Made by a program: the position numbers and the translations under genes. A DNA stretch of 47,553 bases, from IMG/VR virus record IMGVR_UViG_2734482568_000006. The stretch is one strand, 5' to 3'. Of the stretch, positions 8,331-37,504 are shown piece after piece (within the stretch, counting starts at the first letter, position 1; every line of letters begins with the position of its first letter). The stretch is from a virus (Duplodnaviria; Heunggongvirae; Uroviricota; Caudoviricetes). The notes under the pieces were generated by a model. It was not told the DNA's origin. It made no database searches and saw only the letters and a list, made by a program, of their open reading frames with translations.

Positions 8331-8431
8331 GTATTTTACCGGGCTTATTCTGTGACAACCAGGATAAAGAGATTTACAGCATGGTCAGGGAGGTCAGCAG
8401 CCGCTTAGGCTGTCTATAGCGCGGCGATTTT

Positions 8432-8497
8432 TTTGATACCGATTTGCATTTCATTTGATACCGCTGAAAAACGCCGATACGCAACTTATTTGATACT
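8432..8497 (+). repeat. Prophage end (Mu attR-equivalent) with three closely spaced TTTGATAC(C/T) repeats
   Basis: tttgataccg at 8432-8441 and 8454-8463, tttgatact at 8489-8497; inverted copies occur at the other end (46875-47030). Confidence 0.5.
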
Positions 8498-8542
8498 AAA
8501 TCGGCGCTTTTCTTTTGAGTTTTAGAATGAGTTTTTAAGCGT

Positions 8543-9280
8543 TCATTCACTCTCTTTCAAACCAGTTTTAACTGTTTGTGGTTTTGGGTAAGGCTGGACT
8601 TTGAATAGCTTTGTGTTAAGGCGTTTTCTGGCTCTCTTGTCCAGAAACCGGATGTAACGAAACTGACGGAATTTATGAACACTGGCTCTGTCGATATTAG
8701 CCCGCAGATGTTCACCTCGCTGTCCTCCTCGTTTGATTGCATTCTTGCAAATCTCGTGATACCACTCGCCATCAAGTTCATAGAATGTTGTTTCATGACT
8801 GCCTACATAATCAAAATTGCTTGCCTGGTACACGACACCAAGACAGCCACAACGCTCATCTGCAAACGACTGAACCCACTGCACCTGCGGATAAAGTTGT
8901 CTGATTAGTTTGAGCGCGTAACTGATTGCCCTTGATTCGGAGTTTCTCGGCATACAGTCATGCAGCCATAACCGGTTAAGCTCCATATATTCGCGGTTCT
9001 GCGTGCCAGTTACGACGCGTGCACCATTGTTTGGATTAAGGGCATAACCCCATTGCATTACGCCAACCAGCTCCCGTTCTGAAAATATGCCCAGATGAAG
9101 GTAGGAATTATTTACGAAACGATGGCTGTAATGTTTATTGACGACGACCAGCCGGGCCAGCCAGCAACTTATTGTCTCAACCCGTAACTCACGGGAGCCA
9201 TAACCGACGATATTGTCGTTATAGTGAATAAGTTCAGGCGTGCTGATGATACGGGATGTAACTTGCTTTCTGTTCCCCAC
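8543..9280 (-). CDS. mom: Mom-like DNA modification protein (start uncertain, probably GTG at 9280)
   Basis: Position at the prophage end directly downstream of and overlapping a Com-like zinc-finger gene, as in Mu; size about 245 aa from the first in-frame GTG after the com region. The ORF track gives a longer 310-aa frame from 9475. Confidence 0.55.
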
Positions 9281-9434
9281 GACAGGATTTCCTTGTGTAT
9301 GTGGGGTGCTCTGTGGCGCTCTGAGATGTGATTTGATTGAGGGTTTTACAGCGCGGACATTTAACTTCCAGATAACTGAAGCTGGCTCGTGCCAGTAGCT
9401 TGTTACAATGTCGGCACCGTATGTTTCGATACAT
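9234..9434 (-). CDS. com: Com-like zinc-finger translational activator of mom
   Basis: [32 protein letters not shown] resembles Mu Com (..IRCKNCNKLLFKA..IEIRCPRCK..). AGGAGG lies 10 nt upstream of the ATG at 9434, and the 3-prime end overlaps the mom frame. Confidence 0.7.
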
Positions 9435-9570
9435 GGCCGCATAACCTCCTGCTTTGTTGTTGATATCTTTATCACTCAATCGATCGACAAAAACGATCGA
9501 TTTGATTTATTTAATTGATACAACAAATAACACGAAATGTCATTAGCGAAAATTTATGAGTTTGATCACT
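9435..9570 (-). promoter_or_regulatory. Candidate mom-operon promoter region with clustered GATC (Dam) sites
   Basis: GATC at 9482-9485, 9495-9498 (within cgatcgacaaaaacgatcg) and 9564-9567, upstream of com. Mu Pmom is controlled by Dam methylation of upstream GATC sites. Confidence 0.4.
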
Positions 9571-9690
9571 AATTTTAAACGGTGCTGTAACGCATAAGTG
9601 CTGAATGATTGTACATTTGAATACCGCAAAGCAAACAAATCAACTAATTTATAGAAGTCAATTGGTTAATTGCCAGCGTAAGAGGCTGCT

Positions 9691-18083: not shown

Positions 18084-19197
18084 AGCTGATCCCCTGTTTT
18101 TTCATCTGCTGGCGAATAAAGGCATCAACATCGTCACCGGAACCACCCCGGCCCTTACTGTCCGGCTCTGCCGGAACGATAAAGCCGTCACGCGGTGCCA
18201 GTACCAGCCGGGTGACTTCCCCGTTATGTTCATCAAGTAAAAACTCCACCTGACAGACCAGCAGTTCAGTCTGTTCTATACCGAAACGCAGGGCTGAAAC
18301 ACCGGTCAGCAGATTGACATCCCATAACCGGCCATCATCCCGGAACCAGCCACGCACGGTGGCAGAAAACCGTTCTGAACGGGCAATCGCACGGCGCATT
18401 TCACGCAGGGCACGCTGCCGTGCACCGGTGGTGTCTGTCTGTTGATCGGCGAGGATGATTTTCGACCGGTAGCGGCCGATCTGCTCATCACTGATGACGC
18501 CCACAGGTGCTGCCAGACGGGCGGCGGATTCGCTGTCTCCCCGTTTGCCACCACCGCGCCCGTGTCCCCGGACACGGTATTCGCTGTATCGTCCTCGCCA
18601 GTCCGTGTTGTAATCGGCATCAAGCAGGTTATCTCCCAGCACCAGTCTGTCCGTCTGCTGGCTTCCTGCCTGGGTGAACACCAGATCGCCGTCAGCATTA
18701 CTGGTCACCAGCACCCCGCGATGCCGGGCAGCACGGGTCAGCGCATCCGCCACGGTTTCTGAGTTTTCCAGCGTAAAAGAGCTGAAGGGGCGTGCAGCCG
18801 TGTCGTCGTTAACCTGCCAGCGCACGGCTATCCCGAAGGGCGCACATAAATCTGCGGCAATCTGTGCCAGCGTCCGGTTGCGCCACTGGCTGCCGGGATG
18901 GATGGCGGCACAGTCCACCAGGTCGCCGGTTTTATCCCGACCGCTGATGCTGATCTGATGACGGGTTGCACTGATCCGCTGACTGACCTGATCCAGCCAG
19001 CCACTGATGACCGTCTGCCCGTTAATTCTGAGCGTCAGGGACTGACCGGTTCGCAGGGCTGAGGGGATGCGCTCACCGGGCAGCATCAGCCCCAGTTCAA
19101 ACGACCCGGCCAGATGCTCCAGCGAGCGACGGACGCTGACCGTCAGCCAGCCGGAAAAAATACTGCCACCGATATACAGTTCAATCCTGCTGCTCAC
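18073..19197 (-). CDS. Baseplate hub / tail protein (Mu gp44, gene P position)
   Basis: 374 aa, synteny immediately after the gp43-position gene. Confidence 0.6.
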   Translation of the reverse strand: MSSRIELYIGGSIFSGWLTVSVRRSLEHLAGSFELGLMLPGERIPSALRTGQSLTLRINGQTVISGWLDQVSQRISATRHQISISGRDKTGDLVDCAAIHPGSQWRNRTLAQIAADLCAPFGIAVRWQVNDDTAARPFSSFTLENSETVADALTRAARHRGVLVTSNADGDLVFTQAGSQQTDRLVLGDNLLDADYNTDWRGRYSEYRVRGHGRGGGKRGDSESAARLAAPVGVISDEQIGRYRSKIILADQQTDTTGARQRALREMRRAIARSERFSATVRGWFRDDGRLWDVNLLTGVSALRFGIEQTELLVCQVEFLLDEHNGEVTRLVLAPRDGFIVPAEPDSKGRGGSGDDVDAFIRQQMKKQGISFDE

Positions 19198-20539
19198 TGA
19201 TCACCTCCACGCTGCGGCCACCCGGAACAAAAACCGGATCGGGGATATTGTTTCTGCGGACAAAATACTGCCAGCGACTGCTGTTGCCGGTGGCACGGTA
19301 CAGCGTGACCAGTGCCGGTTCGGTGGTGCGAACCATGACCTGAAAAGCACCGGGAAGATGCACGCTCCGTGTGGTTAAATCTTCTGTCAGCGCAAGCCCT
19401 GCATCACGTAATGCAAGGGCAGTCCCGGTATAGCCCTGTGCGGACAGATCCAGCACCTGTTGTTCCATGGCATCGCTCAAATCCCGGTTGATACGCTGCA
19501 CATCAGCAGAACTTTCCAGCCAGGCCAGTCCGCCCGAACGGTCAGTATCCTGAACGTGCGTCGTATTCTGCCGGATGACCTGATCCAGCAGTTTTCCGAG
19601 CGTCTGTGCCTGCGACACCAGGGTTGCACTCTGCATCACGCTCCGCAGCAGACGGATATTTTTCTGTGCCGCAGGCGTCAGGCCAATCAGGCGCTGTGGA
19701 TCATCCTGTTCGCTGAGGGTGTAACGCAGGGAGGAAAGTGTGCGGTACAGCTGCGGCATGGCCTGCTCTGCCATGCTGTCACGGTTTGTGGTCAGGCTGC
19801 CGGACGGCGTTCCGGCTTTTCCGGTCAGAGACAGGGAAGGATCGCCGGGCAGCCCGGTCAGCACGGCAAACATTCCGGCCAGCGATTCAGCCATGCGACG
19901 GGGCGCATTAATCAGGGCGGCGGCATTGCCTTTCAGGGCAGTAAAACTGGCCGTAAAGGCACTGATATCCTGCACAATCCCCATCCCCGAAACGGCATTC
20001 TCCAGTGCATCAATCTTATCGCTGATGGTGTCGGTCATGGCCTGTACATCATGCAGACCGTCTGAAATCACCGTCCAGCCGTCTGAAAGCGTGTTAAACA
20101 GCTGATTCATTGCTGAGCCGCTTTTCTGCTCCAGCGCAGCTGCCGTATCTTCTGCCACCGCAGGGGCGGTATCGTCACTGGCGGGGATCACGTTGATCGT
20201 GAACTCAACCGTTCCCTGCTCGCTGGCGTTATAACGGCTTTCAAAGCTGTTTATCAGCACGTTTAACGTGCCGTAATCCGGGTGCATCAGTTCACCGGCA
20301 CCGGGTGCACGCAGCGCATCACGCAGGCGGCTTCGCTGTGTCTGAAGATCGTCTCCGGTCACCAGAACCGTGAATGTGAACTCCGGGAGTTTTGGCCCCA
20401 GATCATCCGCACCGCCGCTTTCACGCAGTGGGTATTCACGGCGCACAATGTTACGTCCGCCCCGTTCCCGCTGCTCCTGATAAACCAGGAACGGTACGCC
20501 ACGAAAGGAGCCACGCCCCGGCGTGTCAGTAGAGGCCAT
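19181..20539 (-). CDS. Tail protein at the Mu gp43 (gene N, DNA circularisation) position
   Basis: 452 aa directly downstream of the tape measure gene. Confidence 0.6.
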   Translation of the reverse strand: MASTDTPGRGSFRGVPFLVYQEQRERGGRNIVRREYPLRESGGADDLGPKLPEFTFTVLVTGDDLQTQRSRLRDALRAPGAGELMHPDYGTLNVLINSFESRYNASEQGTVEFTINVIPASDDTAPAVAEDTAAALEQKSGSAMNQLFNTLSDGWTVISDGLHDVQAMTDTISDKIDALENAVSGMGIVQDISAFTASFTALKGNAAALINAPRRMAESLAGMFAVLTGLPGDPSLSLTGKAGTPSGSLTTNRDSMAEQAMPQLYRTLSSLRYTLSEQDDPQRLIGLTPAAQKNIRLLRSVMQSATLVSQAQTLGKLLDQVIRQNTTHVQDTDRSGGLAWLESSADVQRINRDLSDAMEQQVLDLSAQGYTGTALALRDAGLALTEDLTTRSVHLPGAFQVMVRTTEPALVTLYRATGNSSRWQYFVRRNNIPDPVFVPGGRSVEVISEQQD

Positions 20540-22583
20540 AGTTCCCTCCGTTCCAGACGTTCACATCCAGGCCATGCTGTGCGGTATCATCCACATCAAT
20601 ACTGCGCGCCCGCCAGCCTTCAGGGGCAACAAGCTCCACCCGTGCGGCGGTTTTCGCGGTGGCCTGTCCGCCGTTTTCGTCACTGCCGCCACGCAGTTTC
20701 TGCCAGGCCTGCGTCAGCCAGCCCCCCAGATAATCACCGAGATAGCTGCCCACCGTGGAACCAATGGCAACCCCGACCGGACCGGCAGCCGCCCCCAGCG
20801 CGCCACCGGCGATACTTCCGGCAAGGGAACCCACGGCACCGGCTTTATCGGCTGCACTGGCGCTGCTGTCCAGCAGTACAGGAGCCGCCATGGCACCGGC
20901 CCACAGGGCACCACCACCCAGCCGACCGGCACCACGGAACAGCCCGGCAAAACGCCCCAGCCCCATGCGGTTTCCGGCCGCCGTTAGCAGACCACCGGCA
21001 CGGCTCATCATACGACCGAAGAAGCCCTGTTTACCGGCACTCTCCGCCAGTTGCTCACCGGCAGTCACGACGGTCGTGACACCCCGTCCACGTCCGGGGC
21101 CGCGTTTTTTACGGCCGCGCACGGTTTTGCCGTCACCGCTGACCACCACATCCCCGCCACCTGAGGCCAGGCCACCCGCAGGCCAATTGGTGACCAGCAC
21201 GGGCTGAACGGCAGCCGGATTTACCCCGGTAAGGAAATTCAGGAACCGGCCAGCGCGTCCGGGCTGCGTTCCCGGTACAGTGGTCTGCGGTTTGCGGAAG
21301 GGCGACGTCAGCACGGAGGTCATCGCCATGCCATAGCGTAAGGGGGTTGCGCCGAGACGTAATGCCCCCGTCCCCGCAAACCTGAGCACCTTCAGCGCAC
21401 GGGAGGCGAGATACATATACATCAGGTACTTTGCGGCGGTCTGCGCACCCTGACCAATGCGATCCAGCGCATCGCCATAACCGGCGTCGCGCAGTGCCTG
21501 AAGCGTTTCCCTGACTTTCTGAATGACCCGGTAAAAGCCGGTCGCAGCGTCTCTGGCATACTCAAATCCCTGATTCAGGGCTGAGGCCGTCTGTGTGGCC
21601 AGCTTATCCTGTAAGCCGCTTTTCTGTGCCGCATCAGCATAATCCAGAAAGCCTTTCAGGCTCTTTTTCAGGCTGTCAAACGGTCCCTTTGCCATCACCT
21701 CGCGGGCAAATCCGTCCCAGACATCGCCCATCATGGACGTCATTCCCGTCCAGGAATTCATGGCGTTTTTCTGGGCACCTTTTGCCTGTTCGGCCATCAC
21801 CTGAAATAACAGGCGAATGCTGTCCGGTCCCAGTTTTCCTTTCTCGCCTTTCTCACGGATGATCTTCTGGTTTACACCCAGCTTATCGGCCAGCAACTGG
21901 TAAACGTTAATCCCGTATCCGGTCAGAATATTGGCGTCCGCTGCCTGGATACTCTGGCGGGCAAACATCTGTTTGAGTTGCAGGGACGCACCCTGTGCAT
22001 CTGACAGTGACCAGCCGTGATAGCCGCCCTGATCCTGAAGCATGGTAATAAAGCGACGGGCTTCCCTGTCACTCATACCGAACCCGCGACTGGAGGCGTA
22101 TTCCTGCATAACCCCCGCCAGCCCCCAGGTGGTGTCTTTGGCGTTCTGTACCGCCCAGGCTTTCACTGCTTCCGTTTTTGCCGTATCGCCATGATTAATG
22201 GCGTTGAGACGCAGAATATAGTTCTCCATCTCTGCGGCCGGGCGGATAAAGGCTTTATTAAACCCGTAGACCGCAGCCCCTCCCGCCAGCATCCCGTAAA
22301 GGTTGCTTATCCGCCCGATGGTGCCGGTAATGCTGCCCTGAAGGCGGTCAAAATCTGACGTCACCGTGCGGATACTGCCACGAACACCGGCAAGCGTTCG
22401 CTGCATACGGGAGCCGACAAGTTCTGTCTCCTGACCGGCACGACGTGCTGCATTTCCAAGACCACCCAGCCCCGTCCTGCCGGAACGGGAGAATGCCCCC
22501 AGCTCCTGTGACCACTGGCGGGATTTGGCAGAAATATTGCCGAGTAAATCGACAATCAGGGAGGCTTTCAGGTTTTTTGCCAT
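20526..22583 (-). CDS. Tail tape measure protein
   Basis: 685 aa, Gly/Ala-rich with helical N-terminal part; position between tube/chaperone and baseplate genes. Confidence 0.8.
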   Translation of the reverse strand: MAKNLKASLIVDLLGNISAKSRQWSQELGAFSRSGRTGLGGLGNAARRAGQETELVGSRMQRTLAGVRGSIRTVTSDFDRLQGSITGTIGRISNLYGMLAGGAAVYGFNKAFIRPAAEMENYILRLNAINHGDTAKTEAVKAWAVQNAKDTTWGLAGVMQEYASSRGFGMSDREARRFITMLQDQGGYHGWSLSDAQGASLQLKQMFARQSIQAADANILTGYGINVYQLLADKLGVNQKIIREKGEKGKLGPDSIRLLFQVMAEQAKGAQKNAMNSWTGMTSMMGDVWDGFAREVMAKGPFDSLKKSLKGFLDYADAAQKSGLQDKLATQTASALNQGFEYARDAATGFYRVIQKVRETLQALRDAGYGDALDRIGQGAQTAAKYLMYMYLASRALKVLRFAGTGALRLGATPLRYGMAMTSVLTSPFRKPQTTVPGTQPGRAGRFLNFLTGVNPAAVQPVLVTNWPAGGLASGGGDVVVSGDGKTVRGRKKRGPGRGRGVTTVVTAGEQLAESAGKQGFFGRMMSRAGGLLTAAGNRMGLGRFAGLFRGAGRLGGGALWAGAMAAPVLLDSSASAADKAGAVGSLAGSIAGGALGAAAGPVGVAIGSTVGSYLGDYLGGWLTQAWQKLRGGSDENGGQATAKTAARVELVAPEGWRARSIDVDDTAQHGLDVNVWNGGNYGLY

Positions 22584-22710
22584 GGGTTACTGCTTCGTTC
22601 TGAGAATTTTTTCGGTCTGTCGGCAGTGCCGGTAAAGCTGCGATAAGGGGAGGTTAAGCGCCCACTCCGGGCCGCTTTTTGTCACCATCCCCAGCACAAT
22701 TGCGGCTTCT

Positions 22711-23187
22711 TCAATCTGATCCCGGCACTGCATCTGGTCGCCCCCGTTCAGCGACCAGCTTTCCGGCCATCGCGGAATCAAGCAGGCTTACTGCCGCCAT
22801 CAGTCGGGAGAGATCGCGCTCGCTGAGCTGTCCTATCTGACGCGGAGACAATGGCCCCTCAATCTGGCCGACAGCGGCAATCTGACGGCGCAGCAGCGCA
22901 ATGCCGCGCAGTGCCGGTGAGGCCACAAGAACCGGACCGTTTCGGGTTTCCATAAGACGCTCGGCCTCGCTCTCCGCATCAATGCTGTCTTTTGCCGTCA
23001 GTTCGCGGAAGGTGACGCGGTATTCACGGGATTCCCCGAACGGCAGACCGTCGAGCAGATCCACATAGCCGTTCGCCAGTTGTTCAGCCAGCCCGGCGGT
23101 GCGGGGATCGCCGTCTTCAAGTGCATCCCGGATAGCCTCCATCACGGCCTCGTCAGAAACCGCCGTTTTTTTCTTACGTGTGCTCAT
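22711..23187 (-). CDS. Tail assembly chaperone candidate (Mu gp41 position)
   Basis: 158 aa acidic protein between tail tube and tape measure genes. Confidence 0.45.
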   Translation of the reverse strand: MSTRKKKTAVSDEAVMEAIRDALEDGDPRTAGLAEQLANGYVDLLDGLPFGESREYRVTFRELTAKDSIDAESEAERLMETRNGPVLVASPALRGIALLRRQIAAVGQIEGPLSPRQIGQLSERDLSRLMAAVSLLDSAMAGKLVAERGRPDAVPGSD

Positions 23188-23201
23188 TACATTTTTCCTG
23201 A

Positions 23202-23567
23202 TTACTGGACACGGGTACTGGTGGCGCTGGCGAACTTCGCGGAGATATCACCACCACCGTCAAGCGAGGCCGGTTCACTGCTCCAGGCCTTCGTCATCAT
23301 GTGGACTTCACCGGTATCGGCCACGAACTCAATCGTGACCGCAGTCCAGGTGTTGATTTCATCGGCAGCCGGTGAACCTTCTCCGCCCGCCGGGAATTTA
23401 CAGTCCAGCGTCGCCTCACGGGGTTTCTCGCGATAGCCGTAAACTTTCGCGCCTTTCACCACTTCACGCTCAAAGCCGGACGGGGAGAACGTGGCCCCCT
23501 CAAGGGTGTCGTACTCCTGCCCGTTCACACGGATGGTGGCCGTGCCCTGATACTGTTTTCCGCTCAT
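23202..23567 (-). CDS. Tail tube protein (Mu M-like)
   Basis: 121 aa directly downstream of the sheath gene. Confidence 0.7.
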   Translation of the reverse strand: MSGKQYQGTATIRVNGQEYDTLEGATFSPSGFEREVVKGAKVYGYREKPREATLDCKFPAGGEGSPAADEINTWTAVTIEFVADTGEVHMMTKAWSSEPASLDGGGDISAKFASATSTRVQ

Positions 23568-23575
23568 GCCTTACC

Positions 23576-25078
23576 TCACAAAATGAAACGGATCTGCGCG
23601 GCCATGAAGCGGAACTGGTTAACCAGATCCGGTGTACACATCACATCCAGACGGTTACGGTCTTTTGTGTTGCGCTCCACGAGCAGATTCTTTTTAAAGG
23701 TGTCCAGATTTTCGACCAGTCCCAGATCCACCCATTCTTCCCCCAGCGAAATTAACTGAAGTTTCATGATCTCCGGTGTCACGATATTCTGACCGGCACG
23801 AACGGGCGTCCCGTCATCAGCCAGTTTATGGCGCGGAAAACGCTGCGTGATAAAGGTGCGCAGGGAATAACGCAGATATGACAGGGTGTAGATGGTTTCC
23901 ACATCCAGATAGCTGGGATCGATTTCGCCGTATGCATTCTGACGGTACATCGTCACCTGACGTTCAATCTGCACCACATCCGCGGCCGCGACGGTCACCG
24001 TGGACATGCCGGTATAAAGCAGGCTGTTTCGCTCTTCCCGCGTCAGACGATCCGGTGCTTCAGGTGCCATACGGGCAGGCAGCGCCAGTGTCTGTAATGG
24101 TCGGGCCGGATCCGTTGACAGGGAGGGCGCACAGACCGCACAAATGGAGGCAGCCCAGACATAATCCGGCTCTGGTGCTTTAGGAATAGAAGTGCAGGTA
24201 AACAGGAAGTCATTACGGGATTCACCAAAACTGGTTGCCGTACCGAAGGTGCCGGTATGCGCCATCCAGACCATACCGTCCGACATTTTTACCGGTCCCC
24301 AGCGTTTCAGCAGTTCATCCGCCAGAATTTTGAGATTTGCCGCATCCTTATAGGGCATGACGATGTAGTTGTACTGACGATTCCCCATCCCTGAGACGCT
24401 ACGGGTGATATCGGGGTTTGTTGCCTTCTGTGTTGGCGCGACGAGCTCCAGCGTAAGACCGGCCGGTGTAGTTTCACCGTCATAATAGTTCACCCGTAAA
24501 TCATGAGCTGAGCATTCACCGATAAAGCGGGCGTTAACCCCCATGCTGCCTTTAAGTCCTTCAGCATTATCACCACTGACTTCAGCTGCGATAGCAGTGA
24601 ATGGCGCATCAGTGTCAGCGTTAATGACCTTAGCCAGCTCTTCCACAAGCTCTTTACCTTTTTTCCCCTTACTGACGGGCAGGAGGTAACGGCGACCGCC
24701 GATGTAAACACTTAACACCCCGTCTGCCAATGCTGTTCCAATGATATTCATCACGCATGCCCTGGACTGACCTGTTCCAGCCCCCTGTGCAATGGCATAT
24801 AACTCTGTGTCAGGGTTAATGGCGATAAATTCCTCTACCATCAGTGCAATCATGGAACCTCGCCCCCAGAGTTCTCTTGCTTGTGAAGCTCGGGTAATAC
24901 GTACTGGTACATCAAGCTGACCGCGCCCCTGAATGGTAGTGTCTTTCATTGCAGCCTGACCAAACAACAGTACCGCCTGACGCTGTGGTGGAGTGCCGGT
25001 CACGGCCATTGAATTATTGATTTCAATCTGTACCAGCGGAATGCGATTGTTATCGCCGATATAATCAAAGTTAATCAT
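23576..25078 (-). CDS. Contractile tail sheath protein (Mu L-like)
   Basis: 500 aa, synteny and size. Confidence 0.85.
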   Translation of the reverse strand: MINFDYIGDNNRIPLVQIEINNSMAVTGTPPQRQAVLLFGQAAMKDTTIQGRGQLDVPVRITRASQARELWGRGSMIALMVEEFIAINPDTELYAIAQGAGTGQSRACVMNIIGTALADGVLSVYIGGRRYLLPVSKGKKGKELVEELAKVINADTDAPFTAIAAEVSGDNAEGLKGSMGVNARFIGECSAHDLRVNYYDGETTPAGLTLELVAPTQKATNPDITRSVSGMGNRQYNYIVMPYKDAANLKILADELLKRWGPVKMSDGMVWMAHTGTFGTATSFGESRNDFLFTCTSIPKAPEPDYVWAASICAVCAPSLSTDPARPLQTLALPARMAPEAPDRLTREERNSLLYTGMSTVTVAAADVVQIERQVTMYRQNAYGEIDPSYLDVETIYTLSYLRYSLRTFITQRFPRHKLADDGTPVRAGQNIVTPEIMKLQLISLGEEWVDLGLVENLDTFKKNLLVERNTKDRNRLDVMCTPDLVNQFRFMAAQIRFIL

Positions 25079-25356
25079 CAGGACGTCCCCTTATCTGATG
25101 CTGCGGTTTTTTCAGCCACCGCCGCAGTTTTTTCTGCTACCGCTCCCGCTGGTTTTGCCGCCGCGCCGGTATTAGCAGTTGTGGCAGCCGGGGCAGGCTC
25201 CGCCGTTTTATCCACCACAATGACGTCGCCATCATTAAGACGGCGGCACCAGAACGGAGTGAAGGGTTTCTCTTCCCCGTCCTGAGAGAGCGGAGTCATC
25301 GTGTCGGGATCGCGGATCAGGCATCCCGGCGCAGGTTTAATAAAAATGGTTGTCAT
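25078..25356 (-). CDS. Hypothetical structural protein (Mu gp38 position)
   Basis: 92 aa with Ala/Thr-rich tail; translationally coupled within the structural block. Confidence 0.45.
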   Translation of the reverse strand: MTTIFIKPAPGCLIRDPDTMTPLSQDGEEKPFTPFWCRRLNDGDVIVVDKTAEPAPAATTANTGAAAKPAGAVAEKTAAVAEKTAASDKGTS

Positions 25357-25359
25357 CTG

Positions 25360-25923
25360 TTATTCCTCTGACAGTCCGGCGTTTTCACCGGCGGCAGTTG
25401 CACCAGGCAGACGGATGTGTGCCTTAAATTCCGGCGTGCCTTCCGGTTCGGTAAAGGTTTCGTAATGGCGCAGGAAATCATCCAGCGAGCTGATATCCGT
25501 CAGCGGGTCGATCATTTCCTCGCATGAGAAATACAGGGCGTACATCACGGCACCGCTGCCTGCCTGCGTTTCGGTGTAACCGTTGACCGCCTTTTCAAAG
25601 TAAAGCGGTGAGGTTTTTTCTGCTCTGAAGCCGTCCAGCACGGTAATCAGGCGGGCCACAATCTGATAAAGCCCGGGACGGCTGACCTCACGGCCATTGA
25701 GCATGTCGCCGATGACGTAGAACACCCAGTGACTGACCAGACGCCCACGGGTACGCCCTTCACCGGCACCCAGCCAGGCAACATAGATAGCCGGGGCGTT
25801 AATCAGCATGGTGCGCAGTACGCTGTCGCTCCAGTCGCCGGGATGTGTGTCAACAGACACCAGTTCATTCCCGAAATACTCACGGATACGGGCGATGTAC
25901 GCCTGCTCGGTTTCCGTAATCAT
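25360..25923 (-). CDS. Head-tail connector/completion protein candidate (Mu gp37 position)
   Basis: Synteny only. Confidence 0.5.
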   Translation of the reverse strand: MITETEQAYIARIREYFGNELVSVDTHPGDWSDSVLRTMLINAPAIYVAWLGAGEGRTRGRLVSHWVFYVIGDMLNGREVSRPGLYQIVARLITVLDGFRAEKTSPLYFEKAVNGYTETQAGSGAVMYALYFSCEEMIDPLTDISSLDDFLRHYETFTEPEGTPEFKAHIRLPGATAAGENAGLSEE

Positions 25924-26339
25924 ATAAAGCCCTTCTGGTTGCGCCCGAACACCGCCGCATCAGACTGCACCTGCGGTAAATCCCCGGATTCAGGGGCCGC
26001 ACCGTCTGTATCCACGCCGACCGGCACGTTACCGTTCATGACATCTTTCAGCCAGGCCAGCGCCTCACGGTAACGGTCACGCGCCTGATCGGATGCCCGC
26101 TGATCGCACAGGTAATAAAAGGCAATCGTGCAGCAATGCTGAACAAGGACCGCCGGAACCACCGCCAGCGGCAGCGTGTAACGGGAAGACAGATAGCTGT
26201 CGATAAGGGCAGACGCGTCCGTCAGTGCCCGGTTCAGCTTGCGCGTGTCCGGTTCATCCGAACGGGGCACGGCCAGTAATGGCCTGAGCAAATCCTCGCG
26301 GTAACGTGCCCGCATATCGGTTTCGGTGGCGTAATTCAT
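25920..26339 (-). CDS. Head-tail joining protein candidate (Mu gp36 position)
   Basis: Synteny only. Confidence 0.5.
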   Translation of the reverse strand: MNYATETDMRARYREDLLRPLLAVPRSDEPDTRKLNRALTDASALIDSYLSSRYTLPLAVVPAVLVQHCCTIAFYYLCDQRASDQARDRYREALAWLKDVMNGNVPVGVDTDGAAPESGDLPQVQSDAAVFGRNQKGFI

Positions 26340-26695
26340 GCGCGCGCCTTTTTCGCCTGTCTGGCGTTATTGCCGGTCTTTTTCCGGGGAGCATCCTGTA
26401 CGGTTTCGGCTTCGGCTAAATCTGCACCGGTCTCTGCATGAACCACACCCGCCACGGCTCCCGCATCATCACCAGGCGTCTGTAGTATTCGTACAGTGAG
26501 GCATGGCTCCGCTTCCAGTCGGGCAAGCTGCTCCGGGGTGACGTCAACCTGCTGGCGTCCCCGCATGAACAGGAACCCCGCACGACGAAAATGCGTACGA
26601 CTGCAACGCACTTCTGCCAGTACCGTGACAGGACTGTCACCACTGACCTGAAGGCCTGAATCATCTGTTGCTGCCACAGTGTGATGTTCATTCAT
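26336..26695 (-). CDS. Hypothetical head protein (Mu gp35 position)
   Basis: Synteny only. Confidence 0.45.
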   Translation of the reverse strand: MNEHHTVAATDDSGLQVSGDSPVTVLAEVRCSRTHFRRAGFLFMRGRQQVDVTPEQLARLEAEPCLTVRILQTPGDDAGAVAGVVHAETGADLAEAETVQDAPRKKTGNNARQAKKARA

Positions 26696-26738
26696 ATTTG
26701 CCCTCCGCAGGGGCCGGGCCGTAAGCCCGGCTCACCGT

Positions 26739-27686
26739 TTACAGATAATCCGCGACAACCAGCTCCAGCTTGCCCTTCATCTCGTTAGAGACTGTGGCGT
26801 TACCGTCTGCGAACAGCTCGCGCTCCAGCAGCTGCACCGCCTGTTTTTCCAGCGAGGTGGGGACAACAATATGGGTGGGTTTGATGCCGAGTTTGCGGCC
26901 ACCGTCAGCCTTAAAGTCACGCATGGCTGACCAGCCGTGCCACAGCGCATCCAGCGTCAGCGGTGACTGCATCATGTAGGCCATCTGCCAGAAGCCGTAG
27001 CCCACATTGCGACGGGCGGAAGCACCGAACACAAACTCGTTATCAGTAAACGCACGGCCTTCATCGACTTTTGTCTGGGCAACCAGTTCGGCTTTGCGGC
27101 GATCCTGATAAATCAGCGGTTTTACCGCGCGGGAGCAGTCAAGCAGATACCAGGCCGGGCCGCTGTAATCCGCCTGTGCACCGACAGAGCCGGTTTTTGC
27201 CACAAACATATTGCTGACCATCTGTGCATCACCGGAGCCATCCACTTTGGGGTAAACAGGGTGTTCGGTATCAAAGAAGTTCTGGCCGTCATAGCAGGCC
27301 GCATTCAGACCATCACGCAGTGCAGCAAAGACCAGTTCATCCGGTTGTGCCGCAGCGGCACGACCCATTTCCTGGAATAACGGGGAGTAGATGCCGAGAT
27401 TGTCGTCTTCAAAGTCATCGCGGCTAATGGCAACGGTGCCTTCAAAGGTTTTGTTCACGATGGCGTAGCCATAGGCTTTCATCTTCTCGATGACGCGGGA
27501 GCCGATCCACTCACGGAACTGCGGGAACTGCCCCAGCCAGCCGTAGGTGTTGGATTTCGAGGTGGACGGCACGGTCATCGCAATTTTCTGGTACTGCGAC
27601 GGAGCCATGGACATCCCGGCCTGAAAATCAGAACGGTAGCCCGTCATCAGGGCGGTGATCATCGCCGGTGTAATCGGGGTAGGCAT
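26739..27686 (-). CDS. Major capsid protein (Mu T-like)
   Basis: 315 aa directly downstream of the protease/scaffold gene. Confidence 0.8.
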   Translation of the reverse strand: MPTPITPAMITALMTGYRSDFQAGMSMAPSQYQKIAMTVPSTSKSNTYGWLGQFPQFREWIGSRVIEKMKAYGYAIVNKTFEGTVAISRDDFEDDNLGIYSPLFQEMGRAAAAQPDELVFAALRDGLNAACYDGQNFFDTEHPVYPKVDGSGDAQMVSNMFVAKTGSVGAQADYSGPAWYLLDCSRAVKPLIYQDRRKAELVAQTKVDEGRAFTDNEFVFGASARRNVGYGFWQMAYMMQSPLTLDALWHGWSAMRDFKADGGRKLGIKPTHIVVPTSLEKQAVQLLERELFADGNATVSNEMKGKLELVVADYL

Positions 27687-28819
27687 TATTGCATTTCCTC
27701 TTTCATTTTCAGGAACTCGGCTTCGGTTTTACCCAACAGACGTGCGGCGGCGATATCTTCAGCCGACAGCACAGCGGTGGCGGTCTTTTTATCCGGCACG
27801 GTTACGGTGTCGGTCTGAAGAGTGGTCAGAGCCGCAACCGGCTGGCGGGCGTCAAGCTGTGCAGAAAGTGCCGCGACGCCAATCTGTTGTCCGAGTCCTT
27901 CCATGTATCCGCGTTCGCTTTTGAAAATGCGTCCTTCGGACTCGGCCTTATCCAGCAACTGCTCCAGCGTGGTGCTGCCGTGTTGTGCCGACAGCGCGGC
28001 ATATTCGGTACGCAGGGCGTTATACGTCTCAACGGGCACATATTTCGTCAGATCAATAGTGCCGCCAGTTGGTGTGCCTTTTGCGGTTTCCAGTTCTGCC
28101 GACAGGCTGGCAACCTGCGTTTTCAGGGTGTCGTGCGCATCCGCACGGGTTTTGATCCCGGTAAGGGCAGACAGCGCCGCCGTGCCCAGTTCCGGTGTAA
28201 ATTCGTCACCGTCAGCCACGGTCAGACCGAGCGCCGTCAGCAACTGGCGTAATTGCTCATTCATGGGGGATTGCTCCTGAGAAGGGGAAACGACATAGAG
28301 ATCATCAGCACTGAGTGCCGCGACAGGGTTCATACCCGTAATACCCGGATCATTCGTCAGGGAAGCCATGCGCAACAGGTAGGGTTCCCCGGTGTCAGCG
28401 AAATAATGCATATATGCAGACAGATAGGCATATTCACGGTCATCAATATGTTTTTGTGCCTGTGGTGTCCATTCAGGTTTAATGAAAATCCCCTGACCCT
28501 CACGCCATTCGATGTTTTCCGGCTTAACCCATCCTGCAGCAATAGCCTTGAATCCGTTTTTCTGCGCATTCACGGAGTGATGGTCATAATCAATCAGTAA
28601 CGGCTGATGCAGGGCGGAAAGCCCGGCTTTCATCCGGTTACAGGCGGATTCGTTAATCAGCCAGCCTTCAGTCGGTTTTTCCGGGCGACCGTCACGGGCC
28701 TTTACCCGACCGGCTGGCAGTAACTGACACCATCCGTCGCCGGATGCAGTCAGCGAAGCTGAAAGCACGGCTAAACCGGAGGGGCGATTTGCGTCTTTTG
28801 GGTGATTTTCTGTCTTCAT
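27686..28819 (-). CDS. Head maturation protease / scaffold protein (Mu I-like)
   Basis: 377 aa with coiled-coil-rich C-terminal half; position upstream of the major capsid gene. Confidence 0.75.
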   Translation of the reverse strand: MKTENHPKDANRPSGLAVLSASLTASGDGWCQLLPAGRVKARDGRPEKPTEGWLINESACNRMKAGLSALHQPLLIDYDHHSVNAQKNGFKAIAAGWVKPENIEWREGQGIFIKPEWTPQAQKHIDDREYAYLSAYMHYFADTGEPYLLRMASLTNDPGITGMNPVAALSADDLYVVSPSQEQSPMNEQLRQLLTALGLTVADGDEFTPELGTAALSALTGIKTRADAHDTLKTQVASLSAELETAKGTPTGGTIDLTKYVPVETYNALRTEYAALSAQHGSTTLEQLLDKAESEGRIFKSERGYMEGLGQQIGVAALSAQLDARQPVAALTTLQTDTVTVPDKKTATAVLSAEDIAAARLLGKTEAEFLKMKEEMQ

Positions 28820-28996
28820 ACCGGCAGCATAAGCCGGGTATTTTTGGGGCTGGTTTTGCGGGACTTCAGAAAGTGCTGACAGGGGGGGAATGAGAAAGGC
28901 GCTTCACGCAGATTTTAAAGCCCGTTAAATACAGGTTAGAAAATCACGACACGCGCCTGAAGGGGGTAAGGTAATACGTTTGCATACCTTAAACCA

Positions 28997-29470
28997 TTAC
29001 GGCGTTTCTGTGGCCTTTTTAAAGCGTTTTCTGATTTCGTCCATGATCTCCTGTTCTGCCACCTGATCAAAGCCCATATACGGACGTGCGCCAATGGCCG
29101 CCGGTCCCGGTGGCATACCAGGCAGGCCACCCCACTGATGAATGGCTGCATAAGGTTCATTTGATCCAATCAGCGCCCAGGTATCGCCATAATCCGTGGT
29201 CAGGCGGCGGGCCAGATCGCCGTTCAGCGTCAGGATTTTGCCGGGCGTGTATCCCTTACGGGTACGCCACTCACGGTAAGGATCTGACCAGTCATGCCAG
29301 CGTTCACCATCCGGCTCTTTTTCCTGCTCAAACGCCATTTCTGACGATGACAGAAGACTCGCCGCCACACTGCGGGCCAGGTCTTTTCCGCCGCCCACAA
29401 ACTGAAGCCGGGCAAACACTCGCTGGAGACGCGTAACGTCAACAACGACAGCTGCATCAATGGATGACAT
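28997..29470 (-). CDS. Virion morphogenesis protein (Mu G-like)
   Basis: 157 aa between the F-like and I-like genes. Confidence 0.7.
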   Translation of the reverse strand: MSSIDAAVVVDVTRLQRVFARLQFVGGGKDLARSVAASLLSSSEMAFEQEKEPDGERWHDWSDPYREWRTRKGYTPGKILTLNGDLARRLTTDYGDTWALIGSNEPYAAIHQWGGLPGMPPGPAAIGARPYMGFDQVAEQEIMDEIRKRFKKATETP

Positions 29471-29509
29471 ATTGCCTCCGCATAAAGGATGAATATAAAA
29501 TAAACAGGC

Positions 29510-29589
29510 GGTCAGTGTACGCTTAACTGGTAAAGTCGGTGCCTGCCTCCGGGTGGATCATGTATGCGGGTTCGACCCCCGCCACTGAC
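29510..29589 (+). ncRNA. tRNA-like structured element (T-arm plus 7-bp acceptor-type stem; not a canonical cloverleaf by eye)
   Basis: gtcagtg at 29510-29516 pairs with cactgac at 29582-29588; gcggg-ttcgacc-cccgc at 29565-29581 forms a T-arm-like hairpin with a TTCGA loop. It is antisense to the phage late genes, in the F-G intergenic gap. Confidence 0.3.
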
Positions 29590-29591
29590 CG

Positions 29592-30923
29592 TTAATCAAT
29601 TTGTCCTTCCAGCACCTCAAGCATTCCGCCCCGGATATCCGATTTCAGCTTATCCATATTGATAACCCGGTAAGCATTCACAATCACATCCAGTTTGTCG
29701 GGCTGACGTTTCAGACTGTACGGTGCATTAACGGCAATCTGCACACTGCCATCCTGATTTTCCACGATATACATCAGATTGTTGTGCCGTTTGTCCCACA
29801 GTACCGCTTTTGGCCTTGCCAGCATTGCCGGTAAGCGCCCGAAGTCCTCCGGCGTCAGAGCGATGCCGTCATTCTGATGTTTCACACTGTCCGCATGGAG
29901 CACATTTTTACCGCTCATCGCCAGCAGGCGGGCCGGTGGCGTTCCCGTCCGGCTTTCCACTGCCTGCGCAATGCTTTCAGTCATAAAGCCCAGCGTGCGG
30001 ATATCGTTACCACCTCGCCGGGTCTGCATGATGTTTTTTGCCCAGATGCGGAACGCCAGCTGCCGCTCCGGGCTGTTGTTCATCTCCTGAACCACCATTT
30101 CCCGTAACGCCGGGCTTTTCACCTCGATCAGTTTGCGGATCAGCGCCTGGTCTGTGCCGAACGCTGCCGAGCCGGGGTTATATGACCAGCCCACATCCGG
30201 TGTCATGGTTCTGGCGCCATCTGAATATGTGGTCACCGGCATTTCTCTGACTTCTCCGGTCTGTTTATCCACGCCAGCCTCAACATTGCGGGTGGAGAGA
30301 TGATCCTCACCGGATGAAACGGATAACCCCATTGCATCCAGACGGGCCTGAGACAATGGCCGCACACGGCAGCGGCAGTTCCAGCCATTGGGCGGGTAGT
30401 GTGTTTTCCAGAACGGATCGTCATAGCGGAATACCAGACCGTTAAGGGCGGAATGCGACGGGCGGGTACGGCTGTCCATGACCGCCACATACTGCCAGAA
30501 CGGATGCGTGTCCGTGTTGTTCATCATCTGCGTGTAACGCCCGGCATTGTAAGCCACACGGGTGTTCACGTTGTAAATCAGCGCCAGACGACGGGGACTG
30601 CCCTGCTGCACTTCTTCCGCGTTACCGTCGCTGTCCACCACAATCTGCTTTCCCCACCATCCCAGCTTTTGCAGGCGTGGCGTCAGTGTGCGGATAAATT
30701 CTTTCTGTGAAATCCCCTCATCAATGGCCCGCTGCACTTCGGCCTGTAATGTGGTTACCACATCCAGCCGTGCCGTTTTTGCTGCCGTGAATGAGCGGGC
30801 ATGAACATCCGCGTCTGTTTCGAACCAGTTCCAGCTGATATGCGCCCCTTTGGCGCGGAAGTATGCCACCGTCTCTTTTGAGGGAAGCGTGGCGGCATAA
30901 CCTAAATCAATCCCCTGAGCCAT
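29592..30923 (-). CDS. Head morphogenesis protein (Mu F-like)
   Basis: 443 aa directly downstream of the portal gene. Confidence 0.8.
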   Translation of the reverse strand: MAQGIDLGYAATLPSKETVAYFRAKGAHISWNWFETDADVHARSFTAAKTARLDVVTTLQAEVQRAIDEGISQKEFIRTLTPRLQKLGWWGKQIVVDSDGNAEEVQQGSPRRLALIYNVNTRVAYNAGRYTQMMNNTDTHPFWQYVAVMDSRTRPSHSALNGLVFRYDDPFWKTHYPPNGWNCRCRVRPLSQARLDAMGLSVSSGEDHLSTRNVEAGVDKQTGEVREMPVTTYSDGARTMTPDVGWSYNPGSAAFGTDQALIRKLIEVKSPALREMVVQEMNNSPERQLAFRIWAKNIMQTRRGGNDIRTLGFMTESIAQAVESRTGTPPARLLAMSGKNVLHADSVKHQNDGIALTPEDFGRLPAMLARPKAVLWDKRHNNLMYIVENQDGSVQIAVNAPYSLKRQPDKLDVIVNAYRVINMDKLKSDIRGGMLEVLEGQID

Positions 30924-32496
30924 CCAGCATCCCCTTCATTTCCGCAGCAAACATGGCATCACTGAGCAGCGTCATCAGGCGGGAATCATCCATTTCACGG
31001 TAAAGGGCAGGCAGGTCTGCCAGTGCCTCCGCCAGCCCCCGCGTTCTGATGACATCAATGACCGGCTCCAGCACCGGATCGATGGCCTCCTGTAAGCGGC
31101 GGGCAGGCACCGCGTCCCCCATGTCGTCCAGTTCATCACGCGGCGTGTTTTTCGCTTCCGGCAGTCGGGCTGAAAGCGCCGTCTGTTCTGTCTTTTCCTG
31201 TTTTTCCGGTAGCGTTTCCCTGTCAGGCATGGCCGGTTCATTACTGCTCTGACGGACACGGAATATGGCTTCACCGGGCGTGGGCTGTGGAATACCGGTC
31301 TGATCCCGTACCCAGGGATCAGGAATATCCATCCCCGCACTGAGTTGCATCACCGCACTGGCTATTTTGGTGATATCCCCCGGTTCTTTGGTCTGGAAAC
31401 AGATACGCGGCAGGCGACGGATATCAATGGCGTGGGCGGTGTTCAGGGCATACAGCGGATACACCAGATCGCGGTTCAGGGTTGCAGCCAGCTGGCGTAA
31501 ATCAGAATCCCTGATTTCCCGGCGCACCTCGTTATGCACCTCACCCAGCGAGCGCGCGCCTTTGTCTCCGGCTTCTGTGGTCAGCGTGCCGCCGAGTATT
31601 GCTTTGGAGATGGAACGCTCACCCCACGAAATCATGGTTTCAAACGGATCGGCCTGACCGTTCGCTGCCGCCTGAAACTCCAGCGACATCCCGGCCGGGA
31701 TGATCCCGCCTGTACGTCGCCCGATATCCATCACCGCCCGCATCAGGGCACTTTTCTGCTCCGGTGTTGCCCCGGACGGGTATTTCCCGACCTTCATTGG
31801 CAGGCCGTACACCTCCAGAAATTCCGCCAGATCGCGCACGGAATAGTTTTTGAAAATGAACGGCCAGATAAGCGTTCTGACAAGCCCCGTCGCACCACCG
31901 TAGCCGGTGCGTGAACGCGACTGATGCACTATCCAGCCAAAGGGCTGAAACGCCACCCCGGCATGGCTGCCGTCACGCAGCCGCAGTTCGCTCAAATCAT
32001 CCGGGTTAAGGCAGAAATGCCCGCTGTCACGCCAGCGGATGGCGCGGATGATGTGCATTTTACCGAGCATCCCGTGCTCAATTTCCATGCAGGAATAGCC
32101 CTTCAGGATGGCATCCGTGGCGTCAAACAGCATGGCATCAAACCAGTCTGCGGAATGCAGATATTCGTCGAGCATTTCCGCGTCCTTTTTCTCATTCGCG
32201 CTGGCGTTCGGTGGCGGCTCAATACTCCATGGCACCCCCTGAATGGCAAGACGTCGCTTGCCCAGCTCCGCAAAAAGGTGGGTGTCCTTTTCTTCAATAT
32301 CAGCGGCCAGATCGGACTGGGCAATCAGATCGCCACGTTCAGCCCCGCGAAGGCACTGCGCCGCCCGGTTCGGGGTGATACCCGAAGCCGGATGTTCAAT
32401 ATAACGGCTGGCAATCTGCGGAATATCCAGCGCGGCACTCTGCATCTCCGGGTCAAAGGAGAAAGGTTTTCCGTCAGTATCAATGATGCGTCCCAC
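30907..32496 (-). CDS. Portal protein (Mu gp29/H-like)
   Basis: 529 aa directly downstream of the terminase large subunit gene. Confidence 0.8.
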   Translation of the reverse strand: MGRIIDTDGKPFSFDPEMQSAALDIPQIASRYIEHPASGITPNRAAQCLRGAERGDLIAQSDLAADIEEKDTHLFAELGKRRLAIQGVPWSIEPPPNASANEKKDAEMLDEYLHSADWFDAMLFDATDAILKGYSCMEIEHGMLGKMHIIRAIRWRDSGHFCLNPDDLSELRLRDGSHAGVAFQPFGWIVHQSRSRTGYGGATGLVRTLIWPFIFKNYSVRDLAEFLEVYGLPMKVGKYPSGATPEQKSALMRAVMDIGRRTGGIIPAGMSLEFQAAANGQADPFETMISWGERSISKAILGGTLTTEAGDKGARSLGEVHNEVRREIRDSDLRQLAATLNRDLVYPLYALNTAHAIDIRRLPRICFQTKEPGDITKIASAVMQLSAGMDIPDPWVRDQTGIPQPTPGEAIFRVRQSSNEPAMPDRETLPEKQEKTEQTALSARLPEAKNTPRDELDDMGDAVPARRLQEAIDPVLEPVIDVIRTRGLAEALADLPALYREMDDSRLMTLLSDAMFAAEMKGMLDGSGD

Positions 32497-34163: not shown

Positions 34164-34408
34164 GCTTTACCTGTCAGAATGCTTTTGATTCGGGACTCAA
34201 GCTCTTCAGTCATCACGTCCACGCCGCTCAACTCATCAGTGGCAGCCTCTGCCAGCAGCGAATGCAGTTGTTCCAGGGATATTTCCCCGGCAATGCTGAG
34301 TTCAGTCAACTCACGACATACCTTTATGGTTTCAGGAGGTAACTGTGTTGCAAGACTGAATGCTTTCTGATGGGCACTGCTCATCAGTGAGCGGTTATCT
34401 GTTGCCAT
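34160..34408 (-). CDS. Small protein (82 aa) sharing the C-terminal tail of the upstream gp27-like protein
   Basis: C-terminus ATDELSGVDVMTEELESRIKSILTGKA parallels VTDELRGVDGMSEQIEFRIRQMLLGKA at the end of 34419-35000; its stop overlaps the terminase large subunit start (ATGA). Confidence 0.45.
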   Translation of the reverse strand: MATDNRSLMSSAHQKAFSLATQLPPETIKVCRELTELSIAGEISLEQLHSLLAEAATDELSGVDVMTEELESRIKSILTGKA

Positions 34409-34418
34409 GATTCACCTC

Positions 34419-35000
34419 CTACGCCTTACCCAGCAGCATCTGCCTGATACGGAATTCGATCTGCTCGCTCATGCCATCCACGCCGCGCAACTCATCGGTG
34501 ACCGCATTCGCCATCTCTTCAGCAAATGCGGCCCGGATTTCTTTTTCACGCTTAATGCTGCGCTCGGCGGCACTTTCTGCACGCTGTGCCGACAGGAGGA
34601 TGTCCTTAATAAGGCGCATATCCACATCGCTGTCGCTGTTCAGGGATTCGGTGGCGGCACGCAGACGGCGGTACATCAGGGCACGGGACATCTCCAGAAT
34701 CAGTGCCGTGGTTTCACCGGTCGGCTTATCCCCCAGTTCGGCCATCATGGCTTTTGTCTGCTCGCGTAAATCACGCAGATTACGGGCAATCAGCTCATTA
34801 CGGGAGGCTTCCCGGCTGATGGCCGCCGGTGAGAGCTGCTGCTCTTCCGGCAGACCTGCTTCACGGATCAGACGGTTGATTTCCTCGCGGATCTGGACCT
34901 GCGTCAGACGTTTTTCACGCAGCATTTCCAGCAGCGGCTTACGGATGCTGTCGGGGAGCAAATCCACCTTGCGTACACGGCCACGCGCTGGCTTATCCAT
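34419..35000 (-). CDS. Terminase small-subunit candidate (Mu gp27 position)
   Basis: 193 aa, helical, basic N-terminus; position immediately upstream of the terminase large subunit region. Confidence 0.5.
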   Translation of the reverse strand: MDKPARGRVRKVDLLPDSIRKPLLEMLREKRLTQVQIREEINRLIREAGLPEEQQLSPAAISREASRNELIARNLRDLREQTKAMMAELGDKPTGETTALILEMSRALMYRRLRAATESLNSDSDVDMRLIKDILLSAQRAESAAERSIKREKEIRAAFAEEMANAVTDELRGVDGMSEQIEFRIRQMLLGKA

Positions 35001-35002
35001 CG

Positions 35003-35805: not shown

Positions 35806-35815
35806 ACCTTTTTCC

Positions 35816-36368: not shown

Positions 36369-36480
36369 ACAGCCTCCGGCAATCAGGGCCGGTAAGGGAT
36401 TGTTCACCGCAGACACAGCACACCCCGCAGCAGCACAACGGCACACAGCAGCGCAATCATGAGCGGTCGCCAGAAGCGGT

Positions 36481-36981: not shown

Positions 36982-37052
36982 TGTTACGCTGTCTCATGGT
37001 GTTCTCTGAGTCAGCGTAACCGTGAGGAAAAGGGGGCAGGATTTGCGGAATA

Positions 37053-37475: not shown

Positions 37476-37504
37476 ACCCGCCTCCGGTCATCATTACACA
37501 GGGC

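Follow-up and report, generated by a model that had tools for sequence, protein, structure and literature searches.

A Mu-type com-mom operon in a Mu-like prophage of Escherichia coli and its predicted control by Com and by Dam and OxyR

The com-mom locus at one end of a Mu-like prophage of Escherichia coli raises the question of how much of the Mu mom circuit it has kept, i.e. whether the overlapping genes are accompanied by the RNA and promoter elements through which Mu controls mom. The locus lies in IMG/VR record IMGVR_UViG_2734482568_000006, a 47,553-nucleotide stretch of DNA that was analysed as a whole and is referred to below as the window. An earlier reading of its sequence (the original prediction) had proposed a Com-like zinc-finger gene overlapping a Mom-like gene, three clustered GATC sites upstream, and the logic of the Mu mom operon, namely a methylation-sensitive promoter combined with Com-dependent translation. 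Our results indicate that the locus is probably a functional com-mom operon of the Mu type that forms the final transcription unit of the prophage, with control by Com at the RNA level and by Dam and OxyR at the promoter. The module itself is already known, is found in a common E. coli prophage, and is annotated in RefSeq; the present analysis is mainly confirmation, and its added value is comparative. Among Mu-like phages of enterobacteria, a pair of Dam sites 13 bp apart and two RNA helices have been conserved, and the promoter regions appear to follow two layouts, a Mu-type and a compact one. In the compact layout, the Dam/OxyR element would lie on the promoter itself, as a variant of the classic circuit.

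Identity of com and mom and the start codon of mom

The com product matched the Pfam family Zn_ribbon_Com (PF10122) with an E-value of 7.5e-13 and 48.2 bits (cut-off, 22.9). In pairwise alignment, it is 45% identical to Mu Com and carries the CCCC zinc ribbon at its N-terminus, where Cys7, Cys10, Cys26, and Cys29 correspond to Cys6, Cys9, Cys26, and Cys29 of the Mu protein. The mom product matched the Mom family (PF25680; E-value 7.8e-78; 261.2 bits; cut-off, 27.1) over the entire model (positions 1-202 of 202), and shares 78% identity with the 231-amino acid Mu Mom that starts at the Mu GTG. Its nearest solved structure is Mu Mom (PDB 8bv8, E-value 2.4e-123); no relative of Com was found in a sequence search of the PDB, and a scan of NCBIfam was of no use for either. 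The Mom protein of Mu generates N6-carbamoylmethyl-adenine by means of Gly-tRNA(Gly), and the residues relevant to its activity include W48, H58, Y59, R111, S124, D149, R151, Y159, and W181 in the 241-amino acid numbering (PMC13219725, 2026). All nine are identical in the protein encoded here. Both genes are under strong purifying selection relative to their relatives, the ratio of nonsynonymous to synonymous substitution rates (dN/dS) being 0.06-0.07 for mom, and dN and dS being 0.008 and 0.17, respectively, for com.

The two genes overlap by 47 nt (9280..9234). The GTG at 9280 is the sole ATG, GTG, or TTG codon of the mom frame inside com, and it aligns with the GUG start of Mu mom. Exactly these coordinates are given for com and mom by the Prokaryotic Genome Annotation Pipeline (PGAP) of RefSeq in identical E. 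coli copies, where the products are named Com family and Mom. The PGAP name for the identical com product (WP_014334043.1) is 'DNA-binding transcriptional regulator', whereas experimental studies portray Com as a translational activator that binds RNA. The mom frame of this copy is also open through com to a GTG at 9475 and an ATG at 9442, both located 5' of the com ATG, giving a 310-amino acid open reading frame (ORF). This upstream-open frame was seen only in copies identical to the window, and the extension is regarded as incidental because a stop codon closes the frame in 97%-identical relatives. An extended Mom starting at either codon was rejected for this reason, and the ATG at 9442 lies, in addition, only 2 nt from the Shine-Dalgarno sequence. 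By sequence homology, com and mom encode the Mu-type Com and Mom proteins, and the GTG start of mom is homologous to the GUG of Mu. The overlapping gene pair and the GTG start within com proposed in the original prediction are thus borne out, as is the Mom assignment, for which it had named an alignment with Mu Mom as a check.

RNA elements at the mom start codon

According to the model published for Mu, Com recognizes a short hairpin that carries CC(N)2-3GAG in a 6-nt loop; adjacent to it, a translation inhibition hairpin contains the GUG codon at which mom starts within its stem, and the consensus for Com obtained by systematic evolution of ligands by exponential enrichment (SELEX) is NGAGNNCC(N)2-3GAGNNCCNN (PMC6483171). 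A perfect match to the SELEX consensus, GAGCGCCACAGAGCACC, is present upstream of the mom start and is the sole match on both strands of the window, where 0.08 would be expected. Directly 3' of this motif, a second hairpin was predicted that holds the mom GTG in its stem and the Shine-Dalgarno sequence of mom, AAGGA (9294..9290), in its 20-nt loop. The minimum free energy of the predicted fold is -14.3 kcal/mol.

Relatives of Mom were gathered from genomes and viral contigs, giving 101 loci (identified below by L numbers), 57 of which contain com. Each of the 17 distinct sequences of Mu/enteric type was predicted to form the start-codon hairpin. Covariation was analysed in an alignment of 13 diverged sequences: across both helices, 96.6% of the cells are paired, compared with 23-61% in controls with slid partners, and double changes occur at four pairs. 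Compensatory changes were found at all four stem pairs of the Com hairpin. The start-codon helix is fully paired in 13 of 13 sequences, and its sole variable pair is the sixth (C:G in eight, U:A in four, and U:G in one). The column of nucleotide 9306 pairs, in addition, with the 5' end of the Com hairpin (G:C in eight, A:U in four, and G:U in one). Because this column pairs both ways, nucleotide 9306 can probably join either helix, and such dual pairing fits a switch. No family for the com-mom RNA elements was found in Rfam. Com-dependent translation of mom, the second half of the regulatory logic originally proposed, is supported by both sequence and comparison: the single SELEX-type motif, the start-codon hairpin adjoining it, and the covariation of both helices all point to it.

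Other arrangements were observed at more distant loci. In L006, L017, and L052 (Symbiopectobacterium/Pantoea persica type), mom starts with AUG and is preceded by a different hairpin, GUCUCCG...CGGAGAC, with the Shine-Dalgarno sequence in the 3' arm, which resembles the Mu logic in another sequence. Mom genes lacking com encode proteins approximately 67-70% identical to the Mom studied here, and at the com-less loci L012-L015, L018, and L069-L102 (e.g. L070, L072, and L013) they are preceded by a conserved structured leader of approximately 100-140 nt. This leader consists of GGGYG, a variable hairpin, and YRCCC, followed by GGTCAYGAGYAC...TTGGAGTRC, which is separated by 9-10 nt from the start codon, ATG or TTG. 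RNAalifold predicted an outer stem and a stem pairing with the Shine-Dalgarno sequence, with compensatory changes at two pairs (UA in 10 and CG in 2; CG in 9 and UA in 3). Some of these leaders are located directly behind a tRNA gene (1010-1081 in L087). No Rfam family was found for the leader at the gathering score. The com-less leader may represent an alternative translational control of mom.

GATC sites and layout of the com promoter

GATC sites are present at 9482, 9495, and 9564 (plus-strand positions), spanning 86 bp and lying 48-133 nt ahead of the com start codon. The cluster of three described in the original prediction exists, and two of its sites lie in an inverted repeat. The third is probably not part of the element and is not counted here, because O157-type copies lack it and its position is beyond the conserved block. 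The proximal pair, 13 bp apart, has the form of an OxyR half-site, ATAGnTnnnAnCTAT, which can be written (G)ATCG-N7-CGAT(C). Two candidate half-sites, one spanning the pair and the other 31 bp upstream, each score 7/10 against ATAGnTnnnAnCTAT, and nowhere else in the window do two half-sites of at least 7/10 occur at offsets of 21, 22, 31, 32, or 33. The same scores at the same offset of 31 were obtained for ATAGaaaacgaCGAT and ATCGgtaatacaGAT in Mu. Bolker and Kahmann reportedly described an OxyR footprint at the Mu mom promoter in 1989. The Mu promoter, Pmom, is under the control of Dam and OxyR, and the Mu activator C binds downstream of two PvuI (CGATCG) sites (PMC3378877; PMC4461284). In P22 gtr, GATC pairs form OxyR half-sites of exactly the same 13-bp kind, at -110/-97 and -46/-33 (PMC2909390).

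Within the window, another 100-bp segment also contains three GATC sites. The pair is nevertheless considered to be more than a product of chance, because it recurs before com or mom in approximately nine diverged lineages. Among 36 distinct regions upstream of com, a 13-bp GATC pair was found in Mu and its close relatives, in L051, L053, and L006/L016/L017, in this prophage type, and also in L048, L049, L050, and the Edwardsiella locus L005; it is present, in addition, before two com-less mom genes (L004 and L007). In the same comparison, it was not found in marine and other lineages. The unit kept across lineages is GATC-N9-GATC and not the whole palindrome. Among haplotypes of this prophage type, the GATC block is invariant (11 of 11), whereas the adjacent 25 nt vary. 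These data support a methylation-sensitive promoter, less directly than they support translational control.

The position of the element differs from that in Mu. Counted from the com ATG, the site begins at -94, with approximately 48 nt after it, whereas in Mu it starts at -121 and is followed by 75 nt, which hold the C site, the -10 sequence TAAGAT, and a 22-nt leader, in a register fixed by the tin7 mutation at -14. The element is thus approximately 26 bp nearer com, at the place of the Mu C-binding site, and the C-site segment of Mu (approximately 30 bp between GATCGATT and the -10 sequence) is missing. A compact layout of this kind, with the site starting at -94 to -100 and approximately 48 nt after it, is common to this prophage, L005, and L048-L050. 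Because approximately 48 nt cannot accommodate an activator site together with a core promoter and a leader, the Dam/OxyR element is expected to overlap the promoter or the leader. Of the promoter half of the predicted Mu logic, an OxyR-type GATC pair like that of Mu is present, whereas the Mu-specific order, with the OxyR site upstream of a separate C site and core promoter, was not found here.

Two placements of the promoter were considered. For the distal one (model 2 in Table 1), the chances appear about even. Both of its hexamers are conserved in 11 of 11 haplotypes and across two types of upstream flank, and the OxyR-type site would extend from -20 to +26, with the GATC pair at about +11 to +27. 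A copy of TTGATAC at 9514-9520 overlaps the candidate -10 hexamer TATCAA, probably by chance. The proximal placement (model 1) is a less probable, though reasonable, candidate, and a smaller chance is left for some other placement. Its distance to the com ATG resembles the 22-nt leader of Mu, and the GATC pair would fall at about -39 to -23. Its -10-like sequence is not conserved in L033-type copies or in L040, whereas L048-L050 have TATACT or TATAGT at this place, and the segment is hypervariable among 95-97% relatives. In copies with 95-100% identity, the variable 25 nt lie within 9435-9481, between GATCGATT and the com Shine-Dalgarno sequence, and L040 has an extra CAACAA; the Shine-Dalgarno sequence itself is near-invariant among haplotypes, with AGAAGG in L043 as the single exception. 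A mosaic breakpoint is located just upstream of the conserved block (approximately 9529-9545), beyond which two unrelated flanks are found.

Late-promoter candidates elsewhere in the prophage bear on this choice. Those at 37049, 28862, and 12894 (minus strand), which precede the lysozyme gene, the protease gene, and a DUF6645 tail gene, share (T/C)CCGCAAA-N22/23-TAYGCT/TATTCT. The CCGCAAA motif is probably the binding box of a C-like activator, and the only gene of the Mor/C family among the candidates scanned encodes a protein that shares 40% identity with Mu C and 28% with Mu Mor. This protein is presumed to activate the late promoters; Mu has both Mor and C. The activator gene comes after a terminator-like hairpin behind gemA. 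A possible activator box, ATTTTCGCTAA, lies at the matching distance from TATCAA and is counted in favour of the distal placement. The O157 prophage L103 has kept the box at two other late promoters, with AACGCAAA at the DUF6645 gene, and has none at com, which counts against that placement. The activator and the late-promoter boxes of O157-type copies are the same as here, and the com promoter of these copies has no box, so that the comparison of activator and box covariation is uninformative.

The compact layout also admits a more far-reaching interpretation, which we regard as possible but doubtful. It holds that the Mu C-site segment has been lost here, in L005, and in L048-L050, and that the Dam/OxyR element occupies the core promoter or leader, as in agn43 and gtr. 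The operon would then be turned on and off epigenetically, perhaps with phase variation in lysogens or with little dependence on the late activator, rather than transcribed from a late promoter that is merely modulated from upstream.

The role of OxyR and Dam itself can be questioned in two ways. The CGATCG palindrome might be the operator of another dimeric regulator, for example the C-like activator, a repressor of the phage, or some host protein that is not OxyR, with GATC a by-product and Dam playing no role. Its perfect 9-bp inverted repeat is indeed tidier than typical OxyR half-sites, and with the proximal promoter placement the element would sit at the position of the Mu activator C. 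What is conserved across lineages is, however, the GATC-N9-GATC unit rather than the full palindrome, in Mu this unit lies in the region to which published work assigns the control of the mom promoter by Dam and OxyR, and CGATCG occurs in none of the other late promoters that share CCGCAAA. We consider this explanation unlikely. As specific roles for the palindrome, a C-like activator box was rejected because of the CCGCAAA motif shared by the other late promoters, and a plus-strand terminator was rejected because no plus-strand gene runs into it.

Quite unlikely, too, is a direct action of Dam without OxyR, whereby methylation of GATC in the -35/spacer or early transcribed region would alter binding of RNA polymerase or the activator, as at pIN of IS10, and would couple expression to post-replication hemimethylation. 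The GATC pair does lie within approximately 40 bp of the predicted transcription start in either promoter model. This explanation nevertheless does not account for the conserved GATC-free half-site at the Mu-like 31-bp offset, and the homologous Mu system acts via OxyR.

Table 1. Features of the com-mom locus and the activator gene in the window
Feature	Position	Strand	Description
com	9434..9234	minus	ATG to TGA, 66 amino acids; zinc-ribbon RNA-binding translational activator; Pfam and Mu homology
mom	9280..8543	minus	GTG to stop, 245 amino acids; GNAT-fold adenine-modifying enzyme; Pfam and Mu homology
Shine-Dalgarno sequence of com, AGGAGG	9450..9445	minus	10 nt before ATG 9434; read from sequence
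Com-binding motif (predicted), GAGCGCCACAGAGCACC	9321..9305	minus	SELEX match; form GAGNNCC-N3-GAGNNCC
Com hairpin	9319..9306	minus	stem GCGC/GCAC, one C.A mismatch, 6-nt loop CACAGA
Translation inhibition hairpin	9306..9275	minus	CCCCAC (9306..9301), 20-nt loop, GUGGGG (9280..9275) with mom GTG
Inverted repeat AATCGATCG-N7-CGATCGATT	9478..9502		perfect 9-bp arms; GATC 9482 and 9495, both within CGATCG, 13 bp apart
OxyR-type half-site (candidate), ATCGtttttgtCGAT	9497..9483	minus	spans the proximal GATC pair
Second OxyR-type half-site (candidate), ATTTgttgtatCAAT	9528..9514	minus	31 bp upstream of the first; no GATC
Third GATC	9564..9567		69 bp from the pair; outside conserved block; absent in O157-type haplotypes
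Candidate promoter, model 1	9473..9465	minus	-10-like GATAAAGAT (cf. Mu TAAGAT); predicted start ~9458
Candidate promoter, model 2	9543..9515	minus	ATGACA (9543..9538), 17-nt spacer, TATCAA (9520..9515); predicted start ~9508
Possible C-like activator box, ATTTTCGCTAA	9553..9543	minus	22 nt upstream of TATCAA; 9/11 match to ATTTCCGCAAA (box at 12894)
Mor/C-family activator gene	37475..37053	minus	Pfam PF08765, E-value 6.7e-31; between gemA and lysozyme gene

Prophage context, proposed control, and comparison with known systems

Positions ~8415..47047 of the window represent a Mu-like prophage of E. coli (38.6 kb, minus strand) that encodes Gam, GemA, one Mor/C-family activator, lysozyme, head and tail proteins, and a transposase; the genes examined are all full length. 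As in Mu, com-mom is the last operon of the prophage, and it adjoins TTTGATAC(C) repeats, which occur at both prophage ends (8432-8496 and 46866-47030) and are likely to be transposase-binding sites. DNA at least 90% identical to 8400..9700 was found in 233 of 5426 complete E. coli genomes, and 2 of 285 E. coli places of com-mom are on plasmids. The flanks of the prophage (1-8414 and 47048-47553) are IncF-type plasmid DNA with senB/TieB, a TonB-dependent receptor gene, and ChaN, and the prophage lies between two non-contiguous IS66/ISEc8 insertion sequence fragments (the C-terminus of tnpC at 7866-8324 and tnpB from 47048). TGTC is present at both flanks, and a clean 5-bp duplication was not seen. 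The O157 copy L103 (E. coli O157:H7 Z852, 2940500-2982000) is inserted inside another prophage, since tail genes of that prophage adjoin it at both ends, a tape measure gene at one and tail assembly and major tail genes at the other. It is very improbable that the module is a relic left silent in a defective prophage, with neither expression nor regulation: the location between two IS66 fragments in plasmid DNA would suit such a relic, but both ORFs are intact, the dN/dS values given above are low, the regulatory block is invariant in the 11 haplotypes, and no truncated gene was seen among the prophage genes examined.

The reading that we favour, a working Mu-type operon, can be summarized as follows. 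Mom, by homology an enzyme with a Gcn5-related N-acetyltransferase (GNAT) fold, would use Gly-tRNA(Gly) to place a carbamoylmethyl group on N6 of adenines in phage DNA, which would thereby be protected from restriction. In the mRNA, the mom GTG at 9280 and its Shine-Dalgarno sequence would be locked in the start-codon hairpin (9306..9275), and Com produced from the same mRNA would bind the CC-N3-GAG hairpin just 5' of it (9321..9305). As nucleotide 9306 can pair in either helix, Com binding should open the start site. At the promoter, OxyR would bind the OxyR-type site (9528..9483, two half-sites 31 bp apart), which carries two Dam sites, when the DNA is un- or hemimethylated, and would obstruct RNA polymerase; this repression would be lifted by full methylation. 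Late timing would probably be provided by the single C-like activator. In contrast to Mu, where the OxyR-type site is located upstream of the activator site, the site here would overlap the core promoter or the early transcribed region.

Several observations weigh against this reading. At the RNA level, the z-score of the fold (-1.44) is unremarkable for RNA alone, the Com hairpin of this copy contains a C.A mismatch, and the covariation derives from only 13 related sequences in dual-coding DNA. As for the OxyR-type element, the set of offsets was chosen partly after the offset of 31 had been seen, Mu also permits a reading with an offset of 22, which makes the exact OxyR geometry uncertain, and GATC-N9-GATC occurs once in the window with 0.77 expected, i.e. 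at chance level. At the promoter, a scan with the sigma-70 consensus found no promoter on the com strand (model 2 was missed because position 6 of its -10 hexamer is A), two placements remain, and the candidate activator box matches at only 9 of 11 positions and is replaced by CATTGTTGA in O157-type copies.

The locus resembles Mu in gene order, in the overlap of the genes, and in the mom GUG start located inside com, and also in the Com-binding hairpin with CC-N3-GAG that adjoins a start-codon hairpin, in the 13-bp GATC pair within an OxyR-type element of two half-sites with a 31-bp offset, in the position of the operon at the right end of a transposable prophage, and in the presence of a C-family activator gene ahead of the lysis genes. 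It differs from Mu in promoter DNA that cannot be aligned by BLAST, in having two functional-looking GATC sites instead of three, and in the 20-nt loop of the start-codon hairpin (11 nt in Mu), with an inner stem on the Shine-Dalgarno sequence. Sp18-type Mu-like prophages of E. coli O157 and its relatives share com, mom, the RNA elements, and the GATC block at 95-97% identity, and differ in the upstream flank, which is replaced from approximately 9529-9545 outward, in the candidate C-box, and in the 25 nt before the Shine-Dalgarno sequence.

Outside the mom systems, agn43 and P22 gtr also have 13-bp GATC pairs in OxyR half-sites that are approximately 31-32 bp apart, in a site overlapping the promoter (GATC3/4 of gtr at -46/-33; PMC2909390). 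These are phase-variable host or lysogenic-conversion genes, whereas the site described here carries GATC sites in one half-site only. In FluMu, Pnm1, and B3, a Com homologue likewise precedes a gene for a DNA-modifying enzyme at the prophage end and presumably controls it, but that enzyme is a Dam-like methyltransferase of relaxed specificity and not Mom (PMC3299994).

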